A stretch of DNA of 55,161 bases, the filler included, from Jimgerdemannia flammicorona (Eukaryota), in the NCBI GenBank assembly GCA_003990765.1. It is 2 parts of 2 records of this genome, joined end to end, with 100 filler letters (N's around TTAATTAATTAA, not from the genome) between each part and the next. Parts side by side here need not be neighbours in the genome. Positions count along the whole stretch, not along the records: positions 27,643 to 55,161 come from RBNJ01000623.1; 1 more part is not named here. One strand, written 5' to 3'. The first letter of the stretch is position 1, and the number at the start of each line of letters is the position of its first letter. This document shows positions 4,169-46,900 of the stretch, one piece after another. The notes under the pieces were generated by a model. The model was not told the origin of the DNA. It ran no database searches and saw only the letters and a program-made list of their open reading frames with translations. The translations under genes and the position numbers were made by a program.

Positions 4169-4198
4169 AATGAAATATGGTTTGTTTGCAATCAATCC

Positions 4199-6225: not shown

Positions 6226-6293
6226 AATACTAGTAGCTTTTCTCCAGAAACTGTGTCGAAAGTGTTGCCAAAGATTGTGTAACCTGAATGTTA

Positions 6294-14893: not shown

Positions 14894-16362
14894 TGTAGGC
14901 ACACAACCTCCAAGCCACTGAAATTACATGTTACCCTCTGAACAAATCTGGAAATCACCTGCTTGATCACAAAGCTGAGTCAAACTGAAGTCACAGCACA
15001 CAAAGCTGAGTCAATACAAAGTCATAGAATACAAGATTTACACAAACGAAATCTTACCAATCAGGATCAAATGTATATATACCAAGCACTGAGACATGTC
15101 AAATCAGAGAACCAAAACAAACAACAAACTACAACTTCCAAACACACAAACATGACCACCAAGATCTATACCCATATCCATACTGACATTTGGAATGTCA
15201 TTGTCAACCGAGCCACACCCCCTCTGCCCCTCATGAATATCCATAGCCTAGCACCCCTCTATTTCATGGAAGCCCGATGGAATGCTCTGAACATGCTTAG
15301 TGAGGCCCACCGAATTAGACAAATCTCAAGCTACTACCAGATCAGCCACCTCCTGGAAGACATGGTCGAAGACCACTATGATACAAACATTATACAGATG
15401 TCTCAACACCAGAAGCTCATCGTCTGTAAACATCAAGAACTCTTCTATGAGTATAGTATCTTTATTTCCTGCCTTCGAGTTACTACCAGCAAATTGGTTG
15501 CTACCCTGTCCTATGGCCAAATCGATGACATGATATAAGAACTCAACCAGAAGTACCTCAAGTATGTCAAAACTATAGACAGAACCTTCCCACACCCCAA
15601 TGATCATATCCTGCAAATGTCTCAAGTTGGATATGCCATGAAGGATATCTATGATATAATCTACTTCAATAAAGATGAAGCAGAAGACAATGATTCCTCT
15701 GACACTGACATAACCTCTAGCCAAGGATCTCTGCCAACCCTGACCACTCTGTCAATCTTGCTGATGAACTTACAATAGTTCATAACTGCATATGAGACTT
15801 ATTGGGACAATGACCACTGGCACAAATACCAACCTGCATTTACCCCTGACTACTTCAACTACAATGAAGAGACCAGAGAACACAACCTGTACCTCCAGAC
15901 AACCCTCGAGACTCGAACACACAAGAAAATTCCTAAATACTTCCCCACAATATCCCTTCACATAACTACTCCTAGTATAGCAATATCATGAATAGCAAAT
16001 AAACCTATTCAATAATCCACAAACCACTCTTAAGTAAATCTGCTCCCTGTTAGGTCCCACTCCTAACCCCATCATGAAATTTCCTAATTGGGTATTGTCT
16101 GCAGCAATACACCAATTCAACTAAGCTGGTCTTAGTTTTTTGAACTTCCCAAAATATGGAAAATCCTGAACATCCAGAACTAGTCTGAAAAAGGACTTTG
16201 GTTGAGACATCAACCCAATCTTGAAATCAATAAGCATAGAGGATGTACTCCATATGAGATTGATCTTGACCATAAAGAAACGGTCTTCCAGAGTATCCAG
16301 AATATTTAGAAAACCTTTCCAGAACTATATAATAGTTACCCTAAAAAAGCAACCCTCTTACA
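14894..16362 (+). repeat. LTR (1469 bp, internally deleted variant)
   Basis: TGTAGG...CTTACA; followed by act + TGGTAGTAGTGG PBS. Confidence 0.9.
15152..15911 (+). pseudogene. LTR-encoded ORF, C-terminally truncated copy
   Basis: MTTKIYTHIHTDIWNVIVNRATPPLP...; matches the other three LTRs. Confidence 0.75.
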
Positions 16363-22260: not shown

Positions 22261-22275
22261 CCACTGCTACTAAGT

Positions 22276-23744
22276 TGTAAGAGGGTTGCTTTTCTAGGAT
22301 AACCATTATGTAGTTCTGAAAAGGTTTTCTAGATATTCTGGATACTCTGGAAGACCATTTCTTTATGGTCAAGATCAATCTTATATGGAGTACGTCCTCT
22401 ACACTTATTGATTTCAAGATTGGGTTGACATCTCAACCAAAGTCCTTTTTCAGACTAGTTCTGGATGTTCAGGATTTTCCATATTTCAGGAAGTTCAAGA
22501 AACTAAGACCAGCTTAGTTAAATTAGCGTATTGCTGTAGACAATACCCAATTAGGAAATTTCATGATGGGGTTAGGAGTGGGACCTAACAGGGAGCAGAT
22601 TTACTTAAGAGTGGTTTGTGGGTTATTGAATAGGTTTATTTGTTATTCATGATATTGCTATACTAGAAGTAGTTGTGTGAAGGGATATTGTGGGGAAGTA
22701 TTTAGGAATGTTCTTGTGTGTTTGAGTCTTGAGGGTTGTCTGGAGATATAGGTTGTGTTCTCCAGTCTCTTCATTGTAGTTGAAGTAATTGGAGGTGAAT
22801 GCAGGTTGGTATTTGTGTCAGTGGTCATTGTTCCAATAAGTCTCATATGCAGTTATAAACTGTTATAAGTTCATTGGCAAGGTTGGCGGAGTGGTCAGGG
22901 TTAGCAGAGATCCTTGGCTAGAGGTCATGTCGGCGTTAGAGGGATCATTGTCTTTTGCTTCATCTTTATCGAAGTGGATTATATTGTAGATATCCTTCAT
23001 GGTGTATCCAACTTGGGGCATTTGCAGGATATGATCATTGGGGTGTGGGAAGGTTCTATCTGTGGTTTTGATGTACTCGAGATACTTCTGGTTGAGTTCT
23101 TGTATCATGTCATTGATTTGGCCATAGGACAGGGTAGCAACCATTTCGCTGGTAGTAACTTGAAGGTGGGGAATAAAGGTACTGTACTTGTAAAAGAGTT
23201 CTCGATGTTTGTGGGCGATGAGCTTCTGGTGTTGAGACATCTGGATAATGTCTGTATCATAGTAGTGTTTGACCATATCTTCCAGGAGGTGGCTGATCTG
23301 GTAGTAGCTTGAGATTTGTCTGATTCAGTGGGCCTTGCTAAGCATGTTCAGAGCATTCCATCAGGCTTCCACAAAGTAGAGGAGTGCTAGGTTATAGATA
23401 TTCATGAGGGGCAGAGGGGGTGTGGCTCAGTTGACAATGGCATTCCAAATGTCAGCGTGGATATGAGTATAGATCTCAGTGGTCATGTTTGTGTGTTTGG
23501 AAGTTGTAGTTTGTTGTTTGTTTTGATTCTCTGATTTGACGCGTCTCAGTGCTCGGTATATATGCATTTGATCCTAATTGGTAAGATTCCATTTGTGTAA
23601 ATCTTGTGTTCTGTGACTTCATATTAACTCAGCTTTGTGTGCTGTGACTTTGGTTTGACTCAGCTTCATGATCAAGCAGGTGATTTCCAGATTTGTTCAG
23701 AGGGTGACATGTAATTTCAGTGGCTTGGAGGTTGTGCGCCTATA
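22276..23744 (-). repeat. Inverted LTR (1469 bp) with adjacent inverted PBS (22261-22272)
   Basis: Reverse complement of 14894-16377, same internal deletion. Confidence 0.92.
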
Positions 23745-25542: not shown

Positions 25543-25709
25543 TGTGAATGGTCGGTTGTCTTCCTCTCTCTTTTTGAATACGAATTAGAAAAATTGTGAC
25601 TCAATCGTTTTAATATTTAACAAACTGACACCTTATTTATATGGTCAGCTTCTCATAGACCGAACTTATAATTACAGTAAATCGAAGTGTATATGTCAGT
25701 CTCTGGGAT

Positions 25710-27228
25710 TTATACCTGACTGGAGATGGTACCAGCTGCCCCGATATCCTCTCTCATAAAGGCATCGGGTAAAGGATCGCGTCCAAGGAAGTCGCGAACC
25801 ATATCCATAGCATCCCTGAAAGAAGATAATAAGTGTGTTTGAATTATTGTATCGTTGGTAAATACATTACTTTGCTCAGTTATGCAATAAATGTCGCCTA
25901 CCAGCTCCCGCCACGCTCGAGAATCTTACGCCTGTATCTATTGCCAACAGCGCTATCCAATGGGTCGCCACTGAATTTGGTGTAGAACATGTCGCTTGAA
26001 TATACTTTGCTCCACATATAACCATAGTAGCCTGTTGTTATGAATAAGTCAGCGTAAGCGAATAAGGGAAACCGCATGAGATCTTTGGGTATCGAGACAT
26101 ATGTACGCTTGTTTGTGTACATGGAAATAAACAATGTCACAAAATCAAGCACTCAAGAGGAATCATACCTGCATCGTATCCGAAAATCATGTGGCTGGAT
26201 GCACATTGAAAAGGATGGAAGGTGATTATTGCATTCCCTAGTAATCGTCCTTGCAACAAATAAGCAAAAGCATACATGCTTACCCGAAGGCAGCTTGGCC
26301 AAACGAACCCTGAGACCGTAATACAGGTAGGATGCGAGAGGAATGAGAATATGTCACAACCATGAACGTTCTCAGATGAAGGGAAATCGCTTTACCTTGG
26401 GTGCTTCAATTAAAGAAATATCTCGGCACAAGTTATTAAATAGTGTAGTCGTGTCCACTTTTTCCTCTGGCAGAAGGAATGAATGCGTGGCAATTTGCAA
26501 TGAGTAACGATCATAGAAAAGTCTAACAAATCGGGTAGGTGAAAATACATTTCCCCACCTTCGCTGCCGTGCAACCTCATGTCAAACACACCGAAGAACA
26601 ACTGCCTAAGATTGAACAGTCCAGCACCGGCTTGCTTTGCCCGCACAATCTTTTCAATGAGCTCGTCTGGAATTGGCTCTCCCGTCTTATAGTGCGAAGA
26701 AAGTCGGCGAAGTGAATTGGATTGCCAACACCAGTTCTCGAGCATCTGTAGTCCAAATGGAAAGATTTAATGAGATGGAATCGGCCATTGTAGTTTGTAA
26801 AAACCGAAAGTACTGACTGAACATCATTCTACCTGAGAAGGGGCCTCGACAAAGTCTTCGTCAGCAAACCAAATATAACCAACTTCAAACGCCATTTTTG
26901 TGTAAAGATTGCATGACGGCGCGTTGCATGTTATACTACTATTTATGACTTCACTCACCTTTTTCAACGTTGGTGCCATGGAAACGCGACCATTTGGTCC
27001 TAGAGCATAGATGGTGCATGACGTGACCCTGTAGAAATATTCAATAAAATTTAATATAGCTCCCACGAGATGCAAGCAGGCGATGACTGAAGATACGGAG
27101 AAGGGGCGGGGTAAGGAATTGTGCATAGATTCTTACCAATTCGTGGAAGAGCGTGACAACTTCATCGTGCTTTAAGAGAGAGGGCTTGTCTTCCGTTCTG
27201 TTGATTGCGCAAGGTATGTCCAAACAAA

Positions 27229-27270
<42 letters not shown>

Positions 27271-27474
27271 GCATCAGAATAAGAAATAAGCATGTCGTAT
27301 AGTGAAGAATAGTAACGTCTTCCGCTTTTGAGGATCTAACTATATAAAGGGGTACATACGGCATGGTAAAATTGGCTACCATAGCAGCAATTGGCGGAAC
27401 TCTTGTGGGTTCGAGCGTATGCTCATCAAGCGTCGTATATGACGCTTGGAAAGGGATACACGCGGCGTGAGAAT
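25710..27474 (-). CDS. M3-family zinc metallopeptidase (thimet oligopeptidase/neurolysin/Prd1-like), 3' part; 5' part lost at the gap
   Basis: PSLLKHDEVVTLFHEL/GHVMH (HExxH across an intron), DFVEAPSQ/MLENWCW, FG/H..GYDA/GYYGYMWS, RYRRKILERGGS; about ten exons; stop at 25710-25712. Confidence 0.95.
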
Positions 27475-27542
27475 CTGTGATAAAGGAAAGGATGACAGGC
27501 AAGTGCGTTCACTGTGAGTGTACGGATGGTGAAAGACGACAA

Positions 27543-27642
27543 NNNNNNNNNNNNNNNNNNNNNNNNNNNNNNNNNNNNNNNNNNNNTTAATTAATTAANN
27601 NNNNNNNNNNNNNNNNNNNNNNNNNNNNNNNNNNNNNNNNNN
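27543..27642. other. Assembly gap: 100 nt of N containing a TTAATTAATTAA six-frame-stop linker
   Basis: Directly visible; the two sides may not be contiguous. Confidence 0.97.
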
Positions 27643-29500: not shown

Positions 29501-30156
29501 GGGCTCTGTATATAGCTGAGAGGATACAAAATGATATAATTAGACTCCCACAACTCTTCAACCATTCTAAACAATTTATAACTTACTAAATAGCTCATCT
29601 TCTTTTTTATTTTTTTTTTGAATCATGGCTCAAAATCATTATCTTTATTATCTAAATATATATATATAGCTCAAAATTATTATCAAAATTATCATCAAAG
29701 TTAGAGCAAGCCTTACTTAGTAATTTGCAAACAGAAAGAAGTAACTCAGATCTAAACTTATCTTCTGATATTAGTATAGATACAGAGATATAGATATATC
29801 AATATACCTAAAATACATTGGATTATATGATATAAAGATATATATTAGCATATATATTAGTATATATATGTAAGCGCACAACCTCCAAGCCACTGAAATT
29901 ACATGTCACCCTCTGAACAAACCACTGAAATCTCACATGACCTCCGAACAAATCTGGAAATCACCTGCTCGATCACGAAGCTGAGTCAAACCGAAGTCAC
30001 AGTGCACAAAGCTGAGTCAATATGAAGTCACGGAACACAAGATTTATACAAACGGAATCTTACCAATTAGGACCAAATGCATATATACCGAGCACTGAGA
30101 CGTGTCGAATCAGAGAACCAAAACAAACAACAACCATAACTTCCAAACATACAAAC

Positions 30157-31253
30157 ATGACCACTGAGATCTACAACCATATCCGCGCTGACATTTGGAA
30201 TGCCATTGTCAACTGAGCCACACCCCTCTGCTCCTCATGAATATCCATAGCCTGGTACCCCTCTACTTCATGGAAGCCCGATGGAATGCCCTGAACATGC
30301 TTAGCGAGGCCCACCGAATCAGACAAATCTTAAGCTACTACCAGATTGGCCGCCTCCTGGAAGACATGGTCGAACACTACCATGATACAGACATTACCCA
30401 GATGTCTCAACACCAGAAGCTCATTGCCCGCAAACATCGAGAACTCTTCTATGAGTACAACACCTTTATTCCCCGCCTCTGAGTCACTACCAGCGAAATG
30501 GTTGCTATCCTATCCTATGGCCAAATCGACAATATGATACAAGAACTCAACCACAAGTACCTCGAATACGTCCAGACCACAGACAGAACCTTCCCGCACC
30601 CTGATGACCATATCCTGCAAATGCCTCAAGTTGGATACACCATGAAGGACATCTACGATATAATCCACTTCGACGAAGATGAAGCAGAAGACAATGATCC
30701 CTCTGATGCTGACATGACCTCTAGTCAAGGATCTCTGCCAACCCTGATCACACCGCCAAACTTGCTGATGAACTTGCAACAGTTCATAACTGCATACAAG
30801 ACTTATTGGGACAATGACCACTGGCACAAATATTAACCCACATTTACCCCTGACTACTTCAACTACAATGAAGAGACCGGAGAACACAACCTGTACCTCC
30901 AGACAACCCTCGAGATTGAACCAACCACTCCACCACCTGAGTACAAGTGACACGAACCACAGCCGCCAGCTTACTACAATCCTGCAACTCATAGTGCTGT
31001 AATTTATAGAAGATATGCAGACAGTGAATCTGATGAAAGCGAAGACAATACACCCATCCTTTGCCCACCAACACCTTATCCAGCATACAAAACAGATGAT
31101 GCTATCCTGTGGGATGGAGATGAAGTCCCAATGTATTACTACCTCAGTCAACAAGGAGAAGTAATCCGCGAACCACTCTTCCTAGATGACTACTTCATCA
31201 GAGATGATGCAATCGATGGTGATGTTATCGAAGACTACCCAGATAGTGTCTAA
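30157..31253 (+). pseudogene. LTR-encoded ORF (~365 aa consensus, unknown function)
   Basis: acaaacATG start; few C->T-type stops and one 1-bp deletion; ends DYPDSV*. Confidence 0.78.
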
Positions 31254-31255
31254 AC

Positions 31256-31452
31256 CTATAAATAGTCTAGCAGTCATAGTATAGATAGATTAGCCTTGTA
31301 CGACATGACTGTGAACTGACTCAGCAGTCAGACGATCTCTTGACATATCAGATCACACTTGTACTATGTGACTGCATTCCAACTCAGCAAGGCACTTAGT
31401 GCTACATCCATATTCAGCATAGTCCAGATAGCCCCTCACTAGTATAAATACC
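31256..31452 (+). promoter_or_regulatory. Two TATA boxes (cctataaata ~31256; gtataaata ~31442), probable LTR promoter
   Basis: Canonical TATAAATA motifs just after the LTR ORF, conserved in the 3' LTR. Confidence 0.55.
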
Positions 31453-31951
31453 CCCTCCCCCAGACCTCAGAATCTCAGACTTGAACAGACTTGAACAGAC
31501 TTGAACAATCTGAACACAACTCCTGAATACTTCCCCACAATACCCCTTCACACAAATACTCCTAGTATAGCAATATCATGAATAGCAAATAAACCTATTC
31601 CATAACCCACAAACCACTCTTAAGTAAATCCACTTTCTGTTAGGTCCTACTCCTAACCCCATCACGAAATTTCCAAATTGGGTATTGTCTGCAGCGATAT
31701 GCCAATTCAACTGAGCTGGTCTTAGTTTCTTGAACTTCCTGAAATATGGAAAATCCTGAACATCCAGAACTAGTCTGAAAAAGGACTTTGGTTGAGATGT
31801 CAACCTGATCTTGAAATCAATAAGCATAGAGGACATACTCCATACGAAATTGATCTTGACCATAAGAAAACAGTCTTCCAGAACATCCAGAATATCCAGA
31901 AAACCTTCTAGAACTACGTAACAGTCACCTTAAAAAGTAACCCTCTCACAA

Positions 31952-34900
31952 CTTGGTAGCAGCGGTTTACAATCCAATTCCGCTTCAAGACACTTCCTCA
32001 CCCCGCTACAAACCCTTCTGCAAATTTCTACAAGTTGGTATAAAGCCCAACCTCTGAACTGGAATTTATCTGAACCATCTGACAATCTGGAGAGAATTGA
32101 ACCTGACGTATAAGGATAATTTGACCTCCATACCTGCAACAAGTGGGATAAACTTCATTCAAAGAAAGAAGTACTCAGGTTAAACCAGCAGATAGGCGAA
32201 ACCCTATTCACCAAACTCCTTGCACTACACCCAGTAAGTCAAGACGAAGAAGGTCTTATTGAAGCCTTCTTTACCCTTCTCAACAAGAGTTTTGTTAGCT
32301 CCACAAATCCAAGTGACCTAGGACAACCAGCAGCAGTCTTTCTAGCCTTAGTTCCTCACGAAGCCCAAGCCTCTGTAGCCAAGTGGCTCAACTCTACTGA
32401 CTTTCACCACACCAGGACCAAGACTGCCTTATACTACCAATTCCAGAACAGCAAGGCCCGCCATATCCTCAAAGAAGAAGCAAGAGAAACCCTTCATCAA
32501 CTACCTGACCCCGAACCTGAAGCAGGCCCTGCTACAGCCCTATCTGAATCTGAAACCAATACCGAACCTGAACTTGACTTTGAATTAAGTCCATCCGAAA
32601 TCAGATATACAACTGATTCTATCTATTTTGACGCCGAGCAAACCCAATTACACGGGGACCAAACCGAAGAAGAGGAGGAGTATCTCACCGAATTCGATCC
32701 CAGATACACCACTGAAGGAGACACACATCCATTAGGACAGAATACACCTACACAGCAACATACAGCTATCTATCAAGCCCTCACTCCAGATCCACAACTA
32801 CTACTCCAGCAACTTACACAGACCCAAAGAACCCCATCATACTCTGCACCAGTACCTCAAGTAGTACCAGTAACACCACTACCAGTAGTCCAACCATCTC
32901 CAGCAATCAACATGGTGAACCAACAGATTCTAGACCTCACAGCCCAGGTAGCTATAATGGCAGCAACCATTACTGCCTTAGCCGAACAGACCTGACCTAC
33001 CAAAAATCTGAGCCTACCTACCTTCAATGATACTGCACAAGAAGTCCAAAGCTTCATTAGTATAGTTGACACTAACTTCGAAGCCAATCAATGGACCAAT
33101 GAGTGAGTTGCTGACCACGTTCTGACAAACAATCAAGACCACACTCTGGAACAACTCTTTGCTACAACTACAGCCTATGTCTGCCAAGTTGTTACATTCT
33201 TCCAAGGACCTGTTGAAGAATGGTGACAAACCCTTCCTGAAAAACCCCTCACATGGGATACCCGACCTGCAGTAGTTGCTCAGAATGCAGCAAACAATGC
33301 CCCAGGATACGGAGCCCATCCTGCAGCCCCTGGACTCAAACAACTCATGATTGCTCAATACTGCAGTGAAACCATGATTGCTGAATCTCAAGTAAAACTC
33401 TGCAACCTCAAATTTGATATACATGGCAAAGAAGAATTCGAAACCTTCTGTACAAAACTTGAGTCACTTCTGAATACTGTTGGTCTAGGATACATTGCCA
33501 ATGATGAAGCATGAAATGGTACAAGAGCAGACCATTTATTTGATGCCCTGCCTGAATGGCTTACTAGAAAAATCTGAGAACAAGACCACCCAGTTGGTTG
33601 TGATCACCAATAATGGTGCCTGGCAAGAATCAAGACCATGGTCAAGTGAATCCTAACAGCTGGACCAATTCTGCCCCAAAGGCAATTCAACAACAAGAAA
33701 AAGACTTGGACCAAGAAAGAAGAACCCAAGCATGAAGTATCTCAAGCTCCCTCCACATCTACCTCTTGGACACCCAGAAATCCTGAACCCACCCAGCTCA
33801 GTACCTTTAAGAAACTTACTAAAGGTGAAAGGAATGAACTTTGAAGAAGTAGAGCATGTTTCTATTACCAAAAGACAGGACACATGGCCAATGCCTGCCC
33901 TAACCGAAAACCCCAAACAGCAACACGAGCAACTGTTACCACTCTTCACCACCTCAACAACCTGACCACCAGAACACTAGACTTTATCAAGTTAAGACAA
34001 ACTGCTAAGGCCCCAACCAAAGGAAGTCAAAAAGCAGCCGGATATGACCTGTATACTGCTGAAGAAGCTACAGTCTCTAACCGAGAAGTCAAACAAGTCT
34101 ATATAGGAATCAGTATCCAAATCCCTGAAGGACATGTTGGAAGAATATGCTATTGCAGCAGCCTAGTACTGAAAGGACTCTCAGTAGAAGGAGGAGTCAT
34201 TGACGAAGATTATACAGGCGAAATCATTGTCCTCATTTGAAACCACAGTTGGACACCCTTCAAGATCCCTATTGGCTTCTGCATTGCCCAGATCCTATTC
34301 GAAAAAATCGAGTCAACCCTGACAGTCAAGGAAGTCCCTGAACTACTGCCTACCATCTGAGGATCTAAAGGATTTGGCTCATCAAACAAGGCCCCAGCCC
34401 AACCTACCATAAGTAAAGAAGAACAATTCTACAAGAAGATAGAAGATGGATATGTACCAAGTGGCTGATGCCCTCACAGTATTGGAATGTACTCTTCCCA
34501 AATGATTGATGATTGCTTCTCTTGTGTCAACGAATTGGCTCAAAGAAGAACCAACAGAAGGAAAGCTCCTACAACTGAAATCACTACCATTGGATCAGAC
34601 AAACTGCTCCCCCTTAAGGCTTTTGTCAATGGAGCACCTGTCAAGATTATGATAGACAGTGGTGTCTCAGGCAACTTCATCAATGAGGAAATAGCCAACA
34701 GACTCAAGGTCTTCACCTCCCCAGTACAGCAAACTCAAGCAGTTGCTACAGCTGATGGAACCTCACATGTTATTAGCAAAGAAGTCCTTCCAAATTGGCG
34801 ACTACCGAGTACATGTTATCCTCCAAATCGTACCACTTTCTGACAATGAAATCATCCTTGGGACTCCATGGTTAAAACAAGAGAACCCTATAATTGATTG

Positions 34901-37900
34901 GGTAAACCATTCCCTGACCATTAAGAAAGAATGCCACAACTTCAAACTATAAGGTGAAAAGGACCCACTCAACTCTAGGGACCCTGGACCAAAGATCACC
35001 CACATCAACAAGCTACAACTCTAGAAATTGGCCAAGAAATACCCTCTCTTCGCTATCTCCATCCGACCATCCAAAGGAGAACCCGAGAACTCTGAAGAAG
35101 ATTTTTCCAAAGTTGACAACCATGTCAGACCACTACTCCAGAAATTCCGAGACATATTCCCAAAGAAGCTCCTGAAAGGCCTACCTCCCAAACAAGCAGT
35201 AGACTATGCAATCAAGACTATCCCAGATGCCAAACCAGCCTTCAAGTCAATCTACCACATGTCTCTGAGAGAAATTGATGCACTCAAAAAGGAAATCGAT
35301 GAACTCCTAGAACAAGGATTCATAAGACCCAGCATATCACCCTATGGTGCACCAGTCCTCTTTATTGTCAAGAAAGGAGGAGACCTATGAATGTACATTG
35401 ACTACCGTGATCTCAATGAATAGACCATCAAGAACTGTTGCCCACTACTGAGGATTGATGAAATATTTGATAGGCTCACCAACCTACAATTCATGAGCTC
35501 TTTTGACCTGTGAAATAGTTACTAGCAAATTGCCATGAAAGAAGAAGACATCTACAAGACAGCTTTCCGAACTCGCTATGGACACTTCGAGTTCCTGGTT
35601 ATGCCCTTTGGCTTAACTAATGCTCCGGCAACCTTCCAGACACTGATGAATACCATTCTGCATCTATACTTGGACAAATTCATTGTTGTCTACATTGACA
35701 ACATCCTAGTCTTCAGCAAAACCCTGGAGGAACATCTTGAACACCTTGAACTAGTACTACTGAAACTCCGAGAAAACAGACTCTTTGCAAAACTCAGCAA
35801 GTGCAAATTTCTTCTGAAAGAAATTCAATTCCTTGGACACATTGTCACTCCAAATGGAATCAAAGTGGACCCTAGCAAAATCTCTGCAATCAAAGATTGG
35901 CCCAGACCAAAGAAGCTGAAAGACCTCCAGTCATTTCTGGGATTAGCAAACTATTACAGGTGATTCGTTGCCAACTTTGCTAAAATCACTACTGCCCTCA
36001 CCCAAATGACCAAGCACAGCAAGAAACAAGAACAACCTTGGACCATGAAACAAGAGAAAGACTTCAACAATCTTGTAAATTGGGGACCTGAGTAAGATAC
36101 CGCCTTTCAGGCACTGAAAGATGCCCTGATAACCACTCCAGTACTTCAAGTGACAAACTCTGCCCTACCATATAAAGTCACTACTGATGCCTCTGACCTA
36201 GCTCTTGGAGCAGTGCTCATGCAAGAAGGACACCCTGTAGCCTATCACTCCTGCAAGTTCAATGATGCCGAAATCAACTATGCAACTCATGAGAAGGAAA
36301 TGCTAGCCATCGTAGACACTCTGATCAAATGGCGACCATACCTAGAAGGAGCACACTTTATGGTATTGACTGACCACAAGTCATTAGTTAACATCAAGAC
36401 ACAGGCTACCCTTTCTCAAAAGCAAGCTAGATGGATGAAAGTCCTTACCAACTTTGACTATGAAATCCAGTACCACCCTGGCAAGGAAAATATTGTTGCC
36501 GATGCAATCTCCAGACCACCAATCGAAGAGGTTATCCAAACTCTGACCTTGGTTACCAACACTATCATGGAACAAATCATCGCAGCATGTGTTGATGATA
36601 AAGAAGCTCAAGCACTCCGAGAAATCCTGAACAATGATGAGACTAACAAGCATACCCAGTACAATCAATACCAACTCAAGGACAATGCTATCTACTACAA
36701 GGACAGATTGTATGTTCCAAACAATCAAGACCTCTGAAGGACTATCCTATTCGAATGTCATGATGCCCCTACAGCTGGACATTTAGGATTTGATAAATGT
36801 TACGAAGTTATCTCCCAAAACTTCTATTGGCCCTGCATGGCAGATCAGCTCAAAACCTACATCACTTCCTATGATGCCTATCAACGAAACAAGTCCTCAA
36901 CACTAGCAAAACCTGGCTTACTTCACCCTATCCCAGTACCATCCACAAATTGGGAACAAATCTCTATGGACTTCATTGTACAACTACCCTGAACCAAGAA
37001 TGGAAAAGATGCAATTGTTGTCTTTGTAGACTATCTCAGCAAACAAGCCCACTTTGTGCCTACTACCACTACTGCAACAGCACCAGACATAGCTACACTC
37101 TTGTTTGACAATATCTTCCACTATCATGGTCTTCCTAAGATCATTGATAGTGACCGAGATCCGAAATTCACCAGCCACTTTTGGAAAGCCCTCCATGCAC
37201 ACCTTGGAACAAAACTTGCACTATCCACAGCCTTTCACCCTGAAACTGATGGCCAAACCAAAAGAATGAACCGAACTCTGGAATAAATGCTAAGGAACTA
37301 TGTCTCCTATAGACAAGATGATTGGTATGAACATCTCACTGCAGTCGAGTTTACCTATAACAACAGCAAGCAAGCCTCTCTTGGAATGACCCCATTCTTC
37401 GCCAATACTGGACAAAACCCAAACACCCCTTTGACACTTATCTGAACTACCGATGAACCCTCCACAGTCGAAGCTGTTGAAGAATTCCTACTCCGAATGC
37501 GTAATCTAAGCCAGATCGCAATTGAGAATTTATTGCAAGCTCAAGAACAACAGTCACAGTATATTAACCAATACTGCTAAGAAGAAACTTTTGATATTGG
37601 AGAAAAAGTCCTACTAGACATCAGAGGATACCGAGTGGACAACCTCAAGCACAGACCATCTACAAAGCTGAACAGCAAGTTCATTGGACCATTTGAAGTC
37701 ATCTCACAAGTCTCTCTGACCTCCTACAAACTGGTGCTACCAGACACCATTAAGATTCACCCAGTCTTTAATGTTCAACATCTCAAGCAATACAATGACA
37801 ATGATGACAAGCTATTTCCAAATCGAACCACCAAACCACCTGCACCTGTCATTATTAATAACCAAGAAGAGTATGAAGTTGAACAAATCCTCAACAAACG

Positions 37901-38033
37901 TGGCAATAAGAACTATCCTGAGTACCTTGTCAAATGGAAAGGTTACCTGACCCATGATGTAACCTAGGAACCCAAGACCAATCTTCAGAATGCTACTGAT
38001 CTAGTTCAGGAATATGATTCCTTGAACAACTAG
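31952..38033 (+). pseudogene. Gag extension-Gag-dUTPase-PR-RT-RH-IN-chromodomain polyprotein, copy B
   Basis: Gag ATG 32912; [61 protein letters not shown]...YLVKWKGY. Confidence 0.95.
31954..31965 (+). promoter_or_regulatory. Primer-binding site TGGTAGCAGCGG (probably initiator tRNA-Met)
   Basis: TGG start 3 nt after the LTR; resembles iMet-type PBS. Confidence 0.75.
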
Positions 38034-38445
38034 AACCAAATATACTGCACCTATCTGTACATACTATATATTATCCTCCTGAACATTATAATTATCACGA
38101 ACCAAATCAAGAACTCAGCAAAACAAGACAAGAATACCGACCCTCTGGGAAAAATAGCAAAATTGAAAGCAAGCCTATTCTCCCTGTATCACTGGTGGGA
38201 AACAAGGCATAGATATTTAAGAAGATTCCTTAGAGGAAATTCTCCAGCAGTGAATGACGTCAGAATCACTTCTGGCGCATGGCATTGAACACATGACCCT
38301 TTAACGTGTGAATCCAACGCATTAAGCAACTGTACTATGAGCATGCCACTTTCTGAAAAAATGGACCTTACCAGACTTTTGACCTCCCAAATGGTGTAAC
38401 AACACTAGAACAAATTAGAAGGTCCTGACAAGGATGTCGAAAGCT

Positions 38446-38459
38446 AAGAAGGGGAGAGT
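38446..38459 (+). promoter_or_regulatory. Polypurine tract aagaaggggagag
   Basis: Immediately precedes the 3' LTR. Confidence 0.9.
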
Positions 38460-40542
38460 TGTAAGTGCACAACCTCCAAGCCACTGAAATTACATGTCAC
38501 CCTCTGAACAAACCACTGAAATCTCACATGACCTCTGAACAAATCTGGAAATCACCTGCTCGATCATGAAGCTGAGTCAAACCGAAGTCACAGCACACAA
38601 AGCTGAGTCAATATGAAGTCACGGAACACAAGATTTACACAAATGAAATCTTATTAATCAGGACCAAATGCATATATACCGAGCACCGAGACGCGTCGAA
38701 TCAGAGAACCAAAACAAACAATAACCACAACTTCCAAACACACAAACATGACCACTGAGATCTACAACTGTATCTATGCTGACATTTGGAATGCTATTGT
38801 CAACCGAGCCACACCCCCTCTGCCCCTCATAAATATCCATAGCCTGGCACCCCTCTACTTCATAGAAGCCTGATGGAATGCCCTGAACATGCTTAGCGAG
38901 GCCCACTAAATTGGACAAATCTCAAGCTACTACCAGATTGGCCGCCTCCTGGAAGACATGGTCGAACACCACCATGATACAGACATTACCCAGATGTCTC
39001 AACACTAGAAGCTCATCACCCGCAAACATCGAGAACTCTTCTATGAGTACAACACCTTTATTCCCCACCTCCAAGTCACTACCAGCGAAATGGTTGCTAC
39101 CCTGTCCTACAGCCAAATTGACGACATGATACAAGAACTCAACCACAAGTATCTTGAATACGTCCAGACTACAGACAGAACCTTCCCGCACCCTGATGAC
39201 CATATTCTGCAAATGCCTCAAGTTGGATACGCCATGAAGGACGTCTACGATATAATCCACTTCGATGAAGATGAAGCAGAAGACAATGATCCCTCTGACA
39301 CCAACATGACCTCTAGCCAAGAATCTCTGCCAACCCTGATCATACCGCCAAACTTACTGATGAACTTGCAACAGTTCATAACTGCATATGAGACTTATTG
39401 GGACAATGACCACTAGTATGAATACCAACCCACATTCACCCCCGACTACTTCAACTACAATGAAGAGACCGGAGAACACAACCTGTACCTCCAGACAACC
39501 CTCGAGATTGAACCAACCACTCCACTACCTGAGTACGAGTGACATGAACCACAGCCACCAGCTTACTACAATCCTGCAACTCATAGTACTGTAACCTATA
39601 GAAGATACGCAGATAGTGAATCTGATGAAAGCAAAGACAATACACCCATCCTTCACCCACCAACATCTTATCTAGTATACGAAACAGATGATGCTATCCT
39701 GTGGGATGGAGATGAAGTCCCAATGTATTACTACCTCAGCCAACAAGGAGAAGTAATCTGCGAACCACTCTTCCTAGATAACTACTTCATCAGAGATGAT
39801 GCAATTGATGGTGATGTTATCGAAGACTACCCAGATAGTGCCTAAACCTATAAATAGTCTAGCAGTCATAGTATAGATAGATTAGCCTTGTATGACATGA
39901 CTGTGAACTGACTCAGCAGTCAGACAATCTCTTGACATGTCAGATCACACTTGTACTACATGACTGCATTCCGACTCAGCAAGACACTTAGTGCTACATC
40001 CATATTTAGCATAGTCCAGATAGTCCCTCACTAGTATAAATACCCCCTCCCCCAGACCTCAGAATCTCAGACTTGAATAGACTTGAACAGACTTGAACAA
40101 TCCGAACACAACTCCTGAATACTTCTCCACAATACCCCTTTACACAAATACTCCTAGTATAGCAATATCATGAATAGCAAATAAACCTATTCCATAACCC
40201 ACAAACTACTCTTAAGTAAATCCACTCTCTGTTAGGTCCTACTCCTAACTCCATCACGAAATTTCCAAATTGGGTATTGTCTACAGCAATATGCCAATTC
40301 AACTGAGCTGGTCTTAGTTTCTTGAACTTCCTGAAATATGGAAAATCCTGAACATCCAGAACTAGTCCGAAAAAGGACTTTGGTTGAGACATCAACCTGA
40401 TCTTGAAATCAATAAGCATAGAGGATGTACTCCATATGAAATTGATCTTGACCATAAGAAAACAGTCTTCCAGAACATCCAGAATATCCAGAAAACCTTC
40501 CAGAACTATGTAACGGTCACCCTAAAAAGTAACCCTCTCACA
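38460..40542 (+). repeat. 3' LTR (2083 bp)
   Basis: TGTAAG...CTCACA. Confidence 0.95.
38748..39845 (+). pseudogene. LTR-encoded ORF, 3' LTR copy (366 codons, no frameshift)
   Basis: ATG to TAA span 1098 nt; internal stops mostly correspond to sense codons in other copies. Confidence 0.78.
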
Positions 40543-41883
40543 TATAGCATAAAGAAAAGAGTATTTAACATAAGAAGTAATAATGTCAACTGCCAAATTT
40601 GATATTATGTGATAGCCAGGATGTACACTGATTGACTAGATGAATTAGTGACTTATAAGTTTATTCTATAGAATTGATATTTAGACTTAGTCAGTTTAGT
40701 AATAATTTAGTAGCTAATTTTGGCTATATTACAGATTAAGATATAGACCTCAATTATATATTATATCAGCTCTTAATTATAGTTGAATACAGTCTAAATA
40801 TCTGACCTAAGTAGTCTTGGGCCCTCTAATAACTCTCAAATAACTAGAGCCTAATCTTATAGATCACTAAGAGCTACTGAGAGTAATATTTACTATCTAA
40901 CTACTCTATACTAATTAGAAGATTCTACTGATATAGTATTTACAATAATTCCAATAATTATTATCAGTCTGATACCCAATTAGTCTATTATAATTATCCT
41001 TCTGCTTATCTGTGATAGTCATCTCCTCTCTCATCTCAATACTATCTAAAAAATAGTTACCTATATCTGAACTATACTTACTGAGAAGCTTGTCAAAGCT
41101 CAGAGAGCTTTATTATAGGTACTAACAATCTGTAGATAATCTATACTAGTACTTAATGCTCAAGAACAGCCAACTCTTTATATAATTCAAAATATATTAA
41201 GATGATATCTAATTGATGATAATAAAAGAAAGAAGTTATTATACTAAAATAAATATATTCTAGATACAGCTAAAGATATTAGAAACTATAAAAAAGTAGA
41301 GAAAGTACTAATCTGATACTAATAAAGAAGTAACTCATCACTATTGCCTTTCTCTCATTACTCAGTAAACTATATAAGATAGAGAGAATAAAGTTAGAAA
41401 AGAAGAAATCCAGATAGTTATCTACTGATTAGTACTCCTAAACAAATCAAATTAATTTGAATTGAATTGAATTAAGAGTCATTTGAATTGAATTGAGATT
41501 TTTTCAATTTGAATCAAGTTTAAATTGAATTAAGGGTTCAATTCAAATCCTATTTTTTGAAATATAATAACTTAATAAAAATATATCCAAAATTAACAAT
41601 CTTTAGCTTGTTAAATTCCTCTTATATAAAAGAATCTACAAGCTAAAGATTATTAAATTTAGACATGTTTTAGTCAAGTTATTACATTTTGAAAAATAGG
41701 GTTCAAATCAAATCTTAAATTGAATTAGACCTTTGATTTGATTTGATCAAATTAAATTTGGATCAAATTTAATTTAATTCAATTTATTACGCAGCTTTCA
41801 CCAGTAACATTCAGGTGACACAAGACTTAGATAACACTTTCGACAATGTTTTTGGTGAAAGGCAACTAGTAACATAGAGAGCA

Positions 41884-43899
41884 ATGACCATACAGGTATG
41901 TATATTAGGTCGGGTGGATCTAGGGCCTTCGACTGGCAGTAGGTGGGAAGGGGTTATGGCCTGGAGATGGGGGCTTTCAGAGGACTGAAGAATGGAGAAG
42001 GCTCTAGAGGGGGACTGGTGTCCAGTAGCAATGGGGGAAGATCTGGTCTCCCGAGCTTCACCGACAAGGTTAAGGGGAGTAGGTGGCTGGCTGGTAATAG
42101 GGCTGGTGCTGCTGAGGGGAAAGGCAAGATGAGCCTTGGGAGGGGGGGCAGTGCTTCGGCTGGAAGTGCAGGTGTAGGGGCTGGAGACACTGTGGCTAGG
42201 GGTGTGACTGTTGATGGGAGTGTGATGGGAAATCAGGAAAAAAAAGGAGATATGATGGCTGATGGCCAGAGGGGGCAGGGGTTTCCGATGCAGAAGGGGG
42301 ACCTGGTGGATGGTGTAACAGGGCTGGTAGTAACCCCATTACTCAAGAAGTCAATCTCGGAGTTTATAGTGACCTTGTGCTTCTGGGGCTTGGCGGTAAC
42401 AGTGAGGATGGTTCTGGGGCTTGTCTCAAAGCAGGTGGCTGGGGCAGCCTCAGTGAAGTTCTTGAAGGATCTGGAGGGAGTCGAGGTAGGATTTGAGGAG
42501 GCCAGTCCACTGGATGAGGCACTGAAGACTGGAGTTATGATTGGGGAAGTGGTGGTCCCCATGGTGTGGTGCTTGTGATGGGACCCCAGAGTGGTGCAGC
42601 TTCTGGTAAAGAGAGTGTCCATGGTGACCAAGGAAGAGACTAGGAAGAGGGTGGAGGAGGTGATGATTGAGTATGACATAGTGGACATCAGCTTTCAAGT
42701 GTGGGAGGGGACAATAATCAGGATGGGCAACATTGATGTCAGAATTCAGCTGGTGGGAAAGGAGGCTATAAGGAAGGCAAGTGACTGGCCTTCTGTACTG
42801 ATGTGAGGGGCATTCATCTGTAAGGTATTGAGGGTGAAGGGGAGTGAGAAGGAGGAGGAGAACTTGTTGGAGGTACTGGAGGAGATGAGTGGAGCTGTGG
42901 AGAGGAGGGTGAGAGCCTGGAAGATGTATGAGGAGTCGATACATCTGGAGGTTGTGGAGGGGAAGTGAATCTACATGGACAAGGGGCAGTGGGAGTGGGC
43001 ACAGAGGCGCAGGAGGCAGAGGGAGCTACTGGCGAGTATGACTGTCAAGGCAAAGAAGAAAGCAGTTGGGGCTGAGGTGTCTGGGGGCATCGAGGCCAGT
43101 GTCTGGGCTAGTAAAGGGGTAGGGGAGGTGGAGGTAGGCAAGGAAGGAGATGGGAAGGTGCTGAGTAAGGACCCTTTTGCCAATGGCACCTTTGAGGTCT
43201 GGGAGCTGGAATTGGACTCCACCCCCCCCCCCTCTGATTAGGAGGGGCCCGGCTGCAAAGAGAAGGGCATCAGAGGATATGCTGATGAAGGGGGCCCAGT
43301 GAGTGCATTTTGGGGTCTCTGATATAGTAAAAGGGGGCCAAGTGGTGGCAGCTGGTGAGGATGAGCTGGTGGATGTCCCTGAGGAGGAGTGGGATGAGGC
43401 TGCCAGTGTGGGTGCTGACACCACAATGTTGGATGTGGGATGGCCAGAGACTCCTGGAGAGAAGGAGGTAGGAAACTTGCTGTAGATGAGCAAGGTGATG
43501 AATAACCTCGCAGCTGATGCATTGGGAGAAGTGGACTTGTGGGTTATACCTGAGGGATACTGGGAGAAAATTCTGTATGGTGAGGGAGTAGTGGAGGCAC
43601 TGAAGGGGGAGATTCTTGCAATTCTCTTAAAGGAGGAGGGATATGAGGTCGATGAGGTGAGGAAGGTAGAGCTGGTGGTGGCTGCAGGTGAGCAGGCAAC
43701 ATACTGCTGGGCTGAGCAGCATAGTTTGCAGCTCTGGAGGGAGGCCTGTCTGGAGTATCGAGAGGAATTTGAGGAGAGGGAAGATGAGGTAATGGTAGAA
43801 CTCCTGGGTGGATTAGAGGTACAGGAAGCTGGGGAAAGGGAACTAGCTGCTGAACATGAATTGGACTTGATGCAGGGAGAGCTGAATGTGGACTTGTAG
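41884..43899 (+). pseudogene. LINE ORF1
   Basis: Homologous to 4199-6225. Confidence 0.8.
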
Positions 43900-43930
43900 A
43901 GGATGGGATCATTTTCTAACATTATTCCTT

Positions 43931-46900
43931 ATGAACAGTACAACTAATATTTTCTCTTTGAATGTGAATGAGCTGAGGGGGTCTGGATGGTGTAAGAACA
44001 TTTTTACCTGACTCAAGGGATTGGAGGCTGATCTCTTTTTACTATAGGATGTACAGTATGAGGATGAGGATGATCAGGTAAAGTGGACTAAGAAATGAGA
44101 TGGGGCTTCTGCTTGGTTTGGAAAAGTGGTGATTCTGGTGAGGAAGGGTAGAGGTGACTTGGAGGGAATCAGGAGCTGGGGTGACCGTTTGGTCTGGGGT
44201 GATTGGCAGCGGCCAGGGTGGGAGTCAGTGAGGGTTGGCTCTTGCTACTGCCCTACAATTAGGGGTGAGAGAATTGCTTGGATTGAGGAGCTGCTGGAGG
44301 AGGGTGTTCTCTTGGTAGAAGGGGTCAATGTAATTAGGGGGGACTTTAATATGGTTCGGGATCAGCGTCTGGACTGCACTGATGGTGGGAGGAGTGCAGG
44401 AGGGAGAAGTGGAGGCCTGGATGCATGGGAGGAGGTGGAGAGGTTGAGCTCCTTAGGGGATATGGGTAGAATGCGATAGGGTGACTCCAGGGTCTATATG
44501 CATTGGGTGAATGGCTTGGGTATAAGGATTGACTGGATTCTGACAGTGAAATGCTGAGGGTCTGATGTCTGGAAGGTATTGGAGGTGGAATGGTGCCCAT
44601 GGTCTGATTACTGGGAACTGTTGGGACAGAGGCAGTTTGGGGGGAGTGGGGATGGACCCAGACATTGGTACCTCAACTCCTCCCTACTAGCTGAGAAGGG
44701 GTTGTGGGATTCATGGGTAGAGGACATTCAGGCAAAAGTTTCTTGCTGGTAGTGTGAGGGTTTGTCAGTAGGTGTCCGGTAGATGAGGTTGAAAGAGGCT
44801 GTGAGGGTCTATTGGAGAGAGGCTGGGAGAGAAGCTGGAAGAAGAAGGAGGAAGTGTACAAGGTATGCTTCCAGCAGGCTGAGATTGTAGATGGATTGGA
44901 CTGATTTGCTTACTTCTGATAGGGTAGAGGATTGGAGGTTAGCATGGATTAGATTGGAGATATTGGAACTGCAACAGGTGCTGAGAGAAGAGGAGGAGGT
45001 ACATATGCAAGGTATGGCTACTAGGCTATGGTAGCAGGGGCTTGAGGAGGGTGAGTGGCCTACTAGATATTTATCCCATCTGCTCAATGCTAGGAGGGTG
45101 AGACATCAGTGAGATGGAGTCCTCGATGCTGATGGGGATATGGTGCATAGCACACAATGAATCCTAGGGGTTTTGAAAGAGAGATGGTAGGGTTTGTGGA
45201 GTGAGAATGAAGGGGGTGCTGATGAGGCAGCTATTGAAGAGGCATTAGGAGAATGGAGGCCACTGCAAGTGGCTGAACTGAATGACTTAGCCTTGCCAGT
45301 GTGAGGTGAGGAAGTCCAGAGTGTCCTTGCAGCAACTAAAACTGGAACAGCACCAGGGGAGGATGGACTACTGTGGGACTTCTGGAAGAAGATGGTCAAG
45401 GTCTCCGGCATTCTGGGGGAGATGACTGCTCTCTGTGATCATGTTCTTCAGAGTGGTGAATGGGTTGGGGAGCAGGATCTTGGGCTGGTGGCTTTATTGT
45501 ACAAAGACAAGGGGAGGAGAGAAGACTGGAAGAACTGGCAGCTGATCATGCTTTTGGACATGGACAGGAAGATAGTAACTAAGGTGGTTGTTGCAAGGCT
45601 GCAGAAGGTTGCCCAACAGGTACTGAGAGAGGAGCAGTGGGGCTTTGTTGGAGGAAGGCTTATTAGAGATGGGACTGCTTGGGTACATAGTGTCATTGAA
45701 GGGGCCTAGGCTTGTGGCCTGGATGGGAGGTTGGTCTTTTTGGATCAGGAGAAGGCCTATGACTGGGTCCAGCGGGTTTGGCTGGGCAAGGTGTTGGATC
45801 ATATTGGTGTTCCTCCTGGATTTCAGGCTTCTATGGTGAATCTGCTTGAGGGCAGTCAGGCAGTGCTGTTGTGTAATGGTCACCATGGTCAGGTATTTAC
45901 CTTAAGAAGAGGGGTTCCTCAGGGGGACCCCTTGTCCTCTATTCTTTATACTCTCTTGTTGGAACTATTAATGGATAGGATTCACCAGAAGGTGGTGGGG
46001 CTCTCTATCTATAGCATAGTGTGGAAGGTGGGGGCCTTTGCAGATGATATGGTAGTTGGTCTTGGGTCTGTGGTGGATGTCGAGGCACTTCAGAAGACAG
46101 TGGAATGGTATGAGGTTCACTCTGGGGCAAAGCTCAACTGGCATAAGTGTGAGACTATGGTGCTAGAGAATGGACTGGTGGATGGGGACATCATTGGAAC
46201 AATTGTCCCTACTGGTGAGGTGGTATGGTATCTGGGTATCTTCCTCTCTGTATATGGTTCTGTCTTACCATGAGTGTGGTGGGAGAGCAGAGTGGCTATT
46301 TGGGGAGAGGCCCTTCGAGGTTGGGGAGGCCACCATATCTCTCTAGTAGGGTGGGTATCAATTCTGAATACTTACTGGTTTCCCAAGCTGTGGTATGTGG
46401 CATATCACCTAGACTTCCCAGCTTGGGTGGTGAAGAGGCTGATGAAGGTGGCTAGGGATTGGATTTGGGCAGAGAGAAGGTCCTAGATCAGTTGGGATGC
46501 TCTTGCAATGCCGGTGGATAGGGGAGGTCTTGGCCTTGTGGATTTCCCTAAGAGGCTGCACTGCTTGTGAGTCTGGTGGATGAGGAGAGCAGCTGAACTG
46601 CAGGGAGAGGGTTGGGTACTTCTGATATAGAAGGTGTGGGAGATGAGAACCTCCCCCCAAGGGTTCTCAGGAGATCTACTCTCTTTGGTAGAGCTCAATA
46701 GAATTTGGCAGCTGCAATTTAAGGGCTTTTGGTGGGGAGTGGTCAATAGAGCACACCGAATTGGTCTGCACTGGCAAGGCAATGAGGGGGAGGTGTTGTG
46801 GGGTCCTCATATGTGGTGATGGGATAGACTGCTTCTGGGGGGTGCTCCACTTATTACTTTTGATATTGGGGATGGAGTGGAGTGTCAGCAGGGTCTTGGC

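Follow-up and report, generated by a model that had tools for sequence, protein, structure and literature searches.

Is it possible for a retrotransposon to carry a protein-coding gene entirely within its long terminal repeat (LTR)? This question is raised by an open reading frame (ORF) at positions 30157-31253 of the DNA analyzed here, a stretch of 55,161 nucleotides from Jimgerdemannia flammicorona (GenBank assembly GCA_003990765.1; two joined parts, filler included) that we call the window. A sequence-only reading of the window had assigned this frame, here termed the LTR ORF, to the U3 region of a Gypsy LTR and had proposed an accessory role for its product of about 365 amino acids. The account that we favor, with moderate confidence in the combination of its parts, is that the LTR ORF is the hypermutated relic of a protein-coding accessory gene that lay wholly in the LTR, formed a cassette in U3, and encoded a regulator acting in trans. 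Its position in the LTR, its coding character, its strand, and its decay are shown by the sequence analysis, and these are taken up first.

The LTR ORF Is Carried by a Chromodomain Gypsy Element

Self-BLAST of the window revealed one complete LTR retrotransposon, element B, at 29869-40542. Its two LTRs of 2083 bp (2082 bp in the 5′ copy) are 94.1% alike in this comparison and have TG..CA ends. Direct LTRs of this form, a primer-binding site, and a polypurine tract are all present, and together these constitute the structural plan of a Ty3/Gypsy chromovirus. The 4-bp sequence TATA flanks element B on both sides, which is weak evidence in AT-rich DNA. The window also holds two LTRs of a short form, one belonging to an older, truncated element (element A) and the other inverted. 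The relevant features are as follows.

29869-31950, + strand: 5′ LTR of element B, 2082 bp, TG..CA ends (self-BLAST, sequence)
31954-31965, + strand: primer-binding site TGGTAGCAGCGG, starting 3 nt past the 5′ LTR, which we take to be the complement of a tRNA 3′ end (sequence)
31951-38459, + strand: internal region of element B, with gag, dUTPase, protease, RT, RNase H, Tf2-type SH3, and chromodomain (Pfam)
38446-38458, + strand: polypurine tract aagaaggggagag, immediately upstream of the 3′ LTR (sequence)
38460-40542, + strand: 3′ LTR of element B, 2083 bp (self-BLAST)
14894-16362, + strand: 5′ LTR of the older truncated element A, short form with a 586-bp and a 31-bp deletion (self-BLAST)
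22261-23739, − strand: inverted LTR of the same short form, adjoining the truncated internal region of element A (self-BLAST)

The internal frames of element B are fragmented into pieces of 121-291 codons. A Pfam scan of seven frame pieces identified, in order, dUTPase, Asp_protease_2, RVT_1, RT_RNaseH, SH3_Tf2-1, and Chromo; the integrase core lies outside those pieces, and gag is without a Pfam match. Because of these domains and their order, we classify element B as a chromodomain Gypsy element with a dUTPase. In the pieces scanned, the order ending in a C-terminal chromodomain is that of Ty3/Gypsy chromoviruses. Rfam gave 0 matches in the window.

Both short LTRs share the same 586-bp deletion, equivalent to 39517-40102 in 3′ LTR coordinates, and one 31-bp deletion. 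The larger deletion takes out codons ~257-366 of the LTR ORF along with both copies of a TATA-type box, TATAAATA, that follow the ORF in the full-length LTRs. It lies between two copies of an AGAYTTGAAC-like microhomology of about 10 bp.

Four Copies of the LTR ORF Share One Frame and Are All Decayed

The LTR ORF occupies LTR positions 289-1386 of 2083 and is thus located wholly inside the LTR, in both LTRs of element B. It had been claimed from the sequence that all four LTRs carry the same frame from an ATG, and this was confirmed for the start codons at 30157, 38748, 15152, and 23486 (− strand). The frame in the 3′ LTR was likewise verified to span 366 codons when the final TAA is counted, with five internal stops. 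The four copies are listed below.

30157-31253, + strand: LTR ORF, 5′ LTR copy (the one flagged initially); 1-bp deletion near 30223; stops at codons 20, 109, 227, and 265
38748-39845, + strand: LTR ORF, 3′ LTR copy; 366 codons including TAA; stops at codons 42, 54, 87, 223, and 265
15152-15920, + strand: LTR ORF, element A copy; codons 1-256 only; stops at codons 129 and 209
22718-23486, − strand: LTR ORF, inverted copy; codons 1-256 only; stops at codons 20, 42, 54, 208, and 223

The flagged 5′ LTR copy is 1097 nt in length, and its frame shifts after about codon 22 as a result of the 1-bp deletion. All four copies within the window are pseudogenes, and no full-length intact copy was found either in the window or among public protein relatives.

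Despite these lesions, the stops proved to be mostly copy-specific and of the transition type, as had been suggested, leaving an open consensus: 10 of the 11 pre-terminal stop positions are occupied elsewhere by a sense codon that is one transition away. The remaining position is the TGA at codon 265 (30948/39540), whose presence in both full LTRs also holds. This is the sole stop position without a sense counterpart, and the region is deleted in the short LTRs. Independent hits are seen at CGA codons 20, 42, and 54, in two of the four copies each, and therefore the TGA at codon 265 can be the product of two parallel CpG hits.

The mutational spectrum is strongly skewed. Among copy-private changes in the shared part of the ORF, 93 of 110 are C>T or G>A (56 and 37, respectively). 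When C>T changes in the LTR alignment are sorted by context, they affect 27 of 35 CpG sites, 54 of 192 CpA sites, 26 of 130 CpC sites, and 9 of 162 CpT sites. C-to-T hypermutation has left neither the four LTR ORF copies nor the remaining parts of the elements functional.

The Frame Resembles Genes of the Element Only in the Sense Direction

A long open frame can arise without a gene, either by chance in DNA of suitable composition or as the shadow of a gene on the opposite strand. The + strand of the region is poor in T (0.22) and G (0.16), and stops are thinned in it for this reason. In addition, the codon-aligned antisense frame is nearly as open as the sense frame. It has five stops among 367 codons and two stops common to all copies, and an antisense stretch of 223 codons at 30510-31181 is free of stops. 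Real genes often face an open frame of this kind, and the question of strand therefore needed a separate test.

The distribution of stops argues against composition as the explanation. Within the ORF span, the LTR ORF frame has one internal stop common to all copies present, compared with 13 and 23 all-copy stops in the other two + frames and 19 and 21 in two of the − frames. The same frame beyond the ORF span has an ordinary stop density, and the stop-triplet frequency of 0.066 in the LTR outside the ORF would lead one to expect about 24 stops in 365 codons.

The strand was addressed by calculating codon log-likelihoods for all six frames after training on 1160 codons read in frame from gag/pol of the element itself. 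The LTR ORF frame scored +134.5 bits in the 3′ LTR, +135.9 bits in the 5′ LTR copy past its frameshift, and +81.4 bits in a 256-codon copy. Scores for the other five frames ranged from −44 to −354 bits, with the aligned antisense frame at −148.7, and no frame exceeded +17 in the LTR parts that flank the ORF. For reference, a held-out gag piece of element A scored +45.2. In position-specific composition, the LTR ORF frame therefore agrees with the genes of the element, and it does so on the sense strand only. These scores, together with the counts of shared stops, bear out the earlier suggestion of an open ancestral state with a coding-like sense strand.

Base composition by codon position can also be compared with that of host genes. 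G occurs at codon position 2 with a frequency of 0.09 in the LTR ORF versus 0.07 in RNase H, and at position 3 with a frequency of 0.13 versus 0.15. In a small sample of three host peptidase exons from the window, the corresponding ranges are 0.19-0.22 and 0.18-0.27.

Two Public Proteins Keep the Frame Open

Relatives of the predicted protein were sought by a word-indexed search of 5.8 billion clusters and by an exhaustive HMMER search of 1.84 billion representatives, covering about 15 billion proteins overall. Two true relatives emerged, P0003 and P0004, each encoded on one short contig. P0004 is a protein of 128 amino acids with the source name "hypothetical protein"; it is 88% identical to residues 1-128, begins with the same first Met, and carries sense residues at all three window stop positions within its range. 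Its end corresponds to codon 129, exactly the position of the premature stop in the 15152 (+) copy, and for this reason P0004 may itself be a truncated, decayed copy.

P0003 is an uninterrupted protein of 247 amino acids that matches residues 115-364 with 65% identity and 80% similarity, is aligned with just two gaps of two residues each, and ends at the same stop position. It begins at the residue aligned to M115, and its contig of 998 nt is too short for the whole gene. Noncoding DNA would hardly be expected to keep a frame open, with every gap in frame, over a protein divergence of 35%. The divergence of P0003 with an open frame constitutes the strongest evidence for what appears to have been past purifying selection.

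The search was otherwise sparse. P0003 as a query found itself only, a search among shorter proteins returned P0004 only, and scans of metagenome_contigs, viral_contigs, and genome_contigs gave no confirmed locus for the DNA of P0003 or P0004. P0005, which matched at 33% over 38 residues in six repeats, is repetitive and was rejected as repeat-inflated; each of its Pfam hits contained zero passing stretches. The LTR ORF is a frame distinct from gag and pol that is kept among family copies and relatives, as additional ORFs of LTR retrotransposons are.

Selection tests confined to the window are less discriminating. Fixed differences between the A and B copies comprise 14 synonymous and 12 nonsynonymous changes, for a dN/dS of 0.20, but the same estimator already gives 0.32 for the element B LTR pair and 0.39 for the A pair after insertion. 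Because the post-insertion pairs give such values, the mutation spectrum alone mimics constraint. The other frames yield dN/dS values of 0.33-1.47 at the A-versus-B fixed sites. On window copies only, fixed and within-pair changes are not clearly distinct (Fisher p = 0.20), and the same is true, again on window copies only, of their spread over codon positions (8/6/18 fixed versus 47/22/41 private; p = 0.12).

Judging from its codon usage, its shared frame, and its relatives, the LTR ORF evidently was a real, formerly coding orphan gene inside the LTR.

The LTR Contains Two Promoter-Like Modules

The placement of the ORF in U3 or R, the use of the upstream promoter-like module, and the function of the product are the interpretive parts of our reading. 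The first two depend on the following features of the 3′ LTR.

38477-38631, + strand: two tandem repeats of enhancer-like type, with units of 32 bp (x2.1) and 31 bp (x2) (repeat search, sequence)
38670-38680, + strand: gcATATATAcc box, ~70 nt upstream of the ATG, conserved in each of the four LTRs (in one case with 1 mismatch)
39849-39856, + strand: first TATAAATA box, 3 nt past the ORF stop
40035-40042, + strand: second TATAAATA box, with a 10-bp x3.2 repeat downstream of it at 40068-40099
40180-40185, + strand: AATAAA (31588 in the 5′ LTR), the only + strand AATAAA in each full LTR

We refer to the tandem repeats and TATATA box as P1, which would be the promoter of the ORF, and to the two TATAAATA boxes after the ORF stop as P2, which would be the genomic promoter of the element, with an R of roughly 100 nt. 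All parts of P1 fall within the initial 290 bp of the LTR, and the 31-bp repeat carries TGAGTCA at 38573 and 38604. Enrichment of this motif was considered and discarded, as 17 occurrences window-wide against 12.3 expected is not significant. At the matching place of the short LTRs, signals equivalent to the AATAAA are found at 15998 (+) and at 22635 (− strand), and the short + strand LTR has an extra one at 15668.

The ORF had been described as ending just ahead of TATA boxes, and this is indeed the arrangement, with the stop at 39843-39845 lying 3 nt before the TATAAATA at 39849. If the TATAAATA boxes are read as the element's own promoter, the ORF falls in U3. The two boxes are perfect copies placed after the stop, and the AATAAA lies about 140 nt further on, which is the classic succession of TATA, R, and poly(A) signal. 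We regard a U3 position as likely for the LTR ORF, with genomic transcription beginning downstream of it. The order of the LTR from 5′ to 3′ would then be repeats and TATATA (P1), ATG, the ORF for 365 amino acids, P2, AATAAA, and U5.

Because a second promoter-like module precedes the ATG, a position in R or the leader is possible alongside U3. In this alternative, the gene is equally real, but P1 is the genomic promoter, RNA starts near 38700, and the ORF is a first cistron (an "ORF0") ahead of gag that the RNA would carry at its two ends. The tandem repeats and TATA of P1 are what usually makes up U3, P1 is located at the extreme 5′ end of the LTR, and the ATG at 38748 is the first one after the gcATATATAcc box, with none between. 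The accessible text on Retrosat2/RIRE describes an ORF0 ahead of gag in plant Gypsy elements, so ORFs in this position are known (PMC3485330). Moreover, the short LTR form without both TATAAATA boxes occurs twice; if these are separate insertions, then P1 may drive genomic RNA and the ORF may be in R. However, the two short LTRs may instead be the pair of a single insertion in which the deletion happened once, in which case they are silent on promoter use. An R of about 1.5 kb would also be needed to reach the only AATAAA, which is far longer than any R known to us. We therefore regard this arrangement as rather unlikely, although it is the strongest of the alternatives.

The end of the 586-bp deletion was also entertained as a transcription start, and was dropped because the deletion sits between the ~10-bp microhomologies noted above.

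Part of the LTR is present in 20 of 21 listed sequencing runs, none of them on record as RNA, at a share of up to 0.31. Four of these (X1, X2, X7, and X16) were aligned as contigs at a threshold of at least 85%, giving 8714, 1014, 318, and 424 pieces, respectively. These contigs include no joint from the leader to the ORF start. As a side observation, the summed depth of X7/X16, which can be taken for RNA only by guess, is 807/3422 in 40043-40331, compared with 0-37 across the ORF and 0-8 in the internal region, although contig depth cannot rank gene parts. With the same limit on contig depth as a ranking of parts, the last 800 bp of the LTR have about twice the depth of the ORF part in X1/X2.

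An LTR Cassette, a Passenger, or No Gene

Returning to a gene in U3, we can envision how such a cassette would be maintained. The genomic RNA would carry a single ORF copy, in its 3′ U3, and reverse transcription would transfer it from there to both LTRs. Each LTR, including solo LTRs, would be a self-contained transcription unit composed of P1, the ORF, and the AATAAA. Such a placement would let reverse transcription double the gene and would keep recombination from removing it. Entry into U3 could have occurred in one step, through a shift of plus-strand priming to a site upstream of a former accessory ORF between pol and the 3′ LTR. In its fullest form, this proposal makes the LTR an autonomous cassette in which every LTR, even a solo one, would express an orphan acidic protein from its own promoter; the product would be a trans-acting transactivator or anti-silencing protein of the family, equivalent in a retrotransposon to the regulatory genes of complex retroviruses. 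We consider that complete version unlikely.

It is also conceivable that the ORF is a passenger, meaning a host gene or gene fragment that was transduced into the LTR and plays no role for the element, with P0003 as its cellular parent or a paralogue. LTR elements capture foreign ORFs, according to the portion of PMC6431247 available to us, all local copies are dead, and the placement of P0003 in an LTR is putative only. Furthermore, because both LTRs share the stop at codon 265, element B may have moved with a broken ORF. Nevertheless, the base composition (G2 and G3) matches that of the element's genes and is unlike that of the three host peptidase exons, small as that sample is, and in codon score it is on a par with gag. 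Many annotated orthologues would be expected of a conserved host gene, yet the HMMER pass gave two relatives, and the frame has stayed open across the 35% protein divergence. These observations make a passenger quite improbable.

Finally, the proposal that no gene exists, and that the frame is open by chance because the DNA is T-poor or merely mirrors a gene on the antisense strand, is largely refuted and highly improbable in light of the stop densities and antisense codon score given above and of two relatives that are both sense-frame ORFs, one at 65% identity with in-frame gaps only.

The Predicted Protein Has an Acidic, Aromatic-Rich C-Terminal Part

The predicted protein of 365 amino acids has a pI of 4.18 and a net charge of −51, with 64 D+E versus 13 K+R. 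Its N-terminal ~140 residues are near neutral and predicted to be helical, from H3-21 to H121-141 in low-confidence models. The C-terminal ~225 residues are strongly acidic, rich in aromatic residues and proline, and predicted to be disordered; residues 141-365 carry a net charge of −42, with 30 Y/F/W in 223 residues and 22 P. Composition and these low-confidence models agree with the sequence-only reading, which had foreseen a helical N-terminal half and an acidic, Tyr/Pro-rich C-terminal half. Model confidence is limited throughout: an AF2 model of the whole protein from a 3-row alignment has a pLDDT of 31.1, a model of P0004 alone (residues 1-128) has a pLDDT of 51.3, and the Atlas model of P0003 has a pLDDT of 0.39.

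The statement that the protein belongs to no recognized family also stands, as searches of Pfam, PDB profiles, and folds gave no match. Specifically, with E cutoffs of 0.01 for the protein from the window and 1 for P0003 and P0004, no Pfam family was detected, and a PDB profile search gave nothing better than E 0.27. Foldseek against the PDB yielded 0 matches at E up to 0.001 among the 386 listed, which were generic helical bundles only. The Atlas search produced no usable hit for P0003 and only sub-threshold ones for P0004 (155 shared features, recognition 2273). The protein also shows no resemblance to the gag of the element.

Acidic tracts studded with aromatic residues are a mark of activation domains and histone-binding tails. 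The LTR ORF protein combines an acidic tract with bulky hydrophobic and aromatic residues and predicted disorder, as acidic activators do, which is a likeness by analogy only. From this analogy we tentatively suggest, as a possibility well short of probable, that the protein acted in the nucleus, regulating either the transcription of its own family or the state of the family's chromatin. The C-terminal part would serve as an acidic activation or chromatin-binding tail, the helical part would tether it to a host factor, and the protein would act in trans.

Comparison with Known Accessory Genes

In the part of the literature accessible to us, the closest positional analogue is the LTR ORF (sag, which encodes a superantigen) of mouse mammary tumor virus, MMTV (PMC2118998). 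As in the present case, sag is a gene of several hundred codons in the LTR, with a copy in every LTR. The two show no sequence likeness, and they differ in host and in element family, ours being a chromodomain Gypsy element. Sag is a membrane glycoprotein of a vertebrate retrovirus, whereas the LTR ORF protein is acidic and has no evident hydrophobic anchor. No likeness to Sag or Nef was found, there being no Pfam family and a best PDB profile match at E 0.27.

Complex retroviruses offer a second comparison. Foamy virus tas/bel and HIV nef are 3′ accessory genes served by an internal promoter, and their coding sequence lengthens U3. The accessory products of complex retroviruses include a transactivator with an acidic activation part. 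However, tas/bel and nef start upstream of the LTR and only overlap U3, whereas the start, stop, and putative promoter of the LTR ORF are all inside. Pfam and PDB profile searches found no homology to tas/bel or nef.

Additional ORFs (aORFs) of LTR retrotransposons provide the third reference point. As described in the available portions of four reports, these occupy one of two places, either after the 5′ LTR and ahead of gag or after pol and ahead of the 3′ LTR, and may run in the sense or the antisense direction (PMC7264820, PMC6431247, PMC3485330, 10.1101/2021.04.13.439636). The first of these, as far as its accessible text goes, presents them as lineage-restricted, fast-evolving, without an assigned function, and kept within a family without database relatives (PMC7264820). 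Partial accounts also mention an additional ORF, brtn, in Botrytis Boty (10.1101/2021.04.13.439636) and an "add. ORF" in fungal chromoviruses (figure legend of PMC2864245). The LTR ORF is like the aORFs so described in being an orphan ORF besides gag-pol with few or no relatives. It differs from them in position, for it lies wholly in the LTR and is hence duplicated, and not in the internal region. The accessible text of PMC7264820 contains none of the phrases "within the LTR," "in the LTR," or "inside LTR."

Element B itself has counterparts. Fungal chromoviruses bearing a dUTPase include PosPlaTy3 of Postia placenta, elements of Phanerochaete, and Tmt1 of Tuber, according to the part of PMC2864245 available to us. 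Element B is like these in having a dUTPase ahead of the protease and a chromodomain ending pol, whereas the accessible portions of their descriptions make no mention of 2-kb LTRs or of an LTR-borne ORF. More generally, subscription papers and old-format supplements excepted, our literature search found no report of a retrotransposon gene wholly inside an LTR. What is new here is an accessory ORF wholly within the LTR, where the additional ORFs so far described for LTR retrotransposons are in the internal region.

Implications of a Gene inside an LTR

LTRs are treated as noncoding control regions and are masked prior to gene calling. Because of this masking, genes in LTRs are systematically missed, which may explain why there are just two metagenomic ORF matches among ~15 billion proteins. 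The location of a gene inside an LTR is unusual and hints at an accessory role for the element. A conserved gene wholly in the LTR would double at each insertion and would persist in solo LTRs after the rest of its element is gone. Through such a gene, a retrotransposon would also possess its own regulatory protein, a feature that has so far been associated with complex retroviruses.

Sequence decay and rearrangement of the LTRs

When C-to-T hypermutation was scored by sequence context over all four LTRs (14894-16362, 22261-23739, 29869-31950, and 38460-40542), mutated sites proved most common at CpG (77%), followed by CpA (28%), CpC (20%), and CpT (6%). This pattern fits either methylation-linked deamination or a RIP-like process. 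The DNA flanking the LTRs has a G+C content of 24-30%.

The LTRs at 14894-16362 (+) and 22261-23739 (-) represent a short form that carries a 586-bp deletion. The deletion ends correspond to two look-alike motifs of ~10 bp (AGAYTTGAAC-like) at 39505-39516 and 40090-40101, one residing within the 366-codon ORF and the other within a 10-bp tandem repeat past the second TATA box. The presence of such motifs at both ends suggests that the deletion arose by template switching or slippage.

The inverted short LTR (22261-23739) is joined to the internal region of element A, the older truncated Gypsy relative, at the position equivalent to 37840 of the dUTPase-bearing element B, and its other side carries no element sequence. 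Its arrangement matches neither a clean solo-LTR insertion nor a simple inversion of the 3′ LTR of element A.

The strand opposite the ORF contains a further open region:

30510-31181 (-), stop-free antisense stretch of 223 codons

With a codon score of -136 to -149 bits, this stretch is rejected as a gene and taken for the shadow that a sense frame commonly casts on the opposite strand.

Contig depth at the LTR end

Two small sequencing runs (X7 and X16, RNA by guess) show summed contig depth ~100 times as great across the final 500 bp of the LTR as across the ORF or the internal region. For two runs that are DNA-like, depth across the final 800 bp is ~2 times that of the ORF part. Contig depth of this kind permits no conclusion.

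40043-40600, stretch of raised contig depth

The excess possibly derives from relatives with a shorter LTR that lacks the ORF, or possibly from a strongly expressed relative that has this part in common.

Gypsy dUTPase and neighboring sequences

33845-34240 (+), Gypsy-element dUTPase domain (Pfam E 1.1e-18), located after gag and before protease
25700-27510 (-), host gene of the peptidase M3 type (thimet-oligopeptidase-like), present as exon-like pieces (weak Pfam match, E 7.8e-05, under the cut-off)
1255-2025/46073-46843, inverted-relic arm pair 1
2269-2637/45460-45828, arm pair 2
5507-5802/42297-42592, arm pair 3
1672-2705 (-), RVT_1 match, first relic
45710-46273 (+), RVT_1 match, second relic

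A few fungal chromoviruses are also known to carry a dUTPase domain, whose placement differs from family to family (PMC2864245). The peptidase pieces are located between the two Gypsy elements and adjoin N runs at 27543-27586 and 27599-27642.

Another retroelement is present as two mutually inverted relics (1000-9000 and 42000-47000), with 71-75% complementarity over the arms. Their GC skew is extreme, ranging from -0.36 to -0.51 in the first and from +0.38 to +0.53 in the second, and these signs indicate a coding strand rich in G and poor in C.
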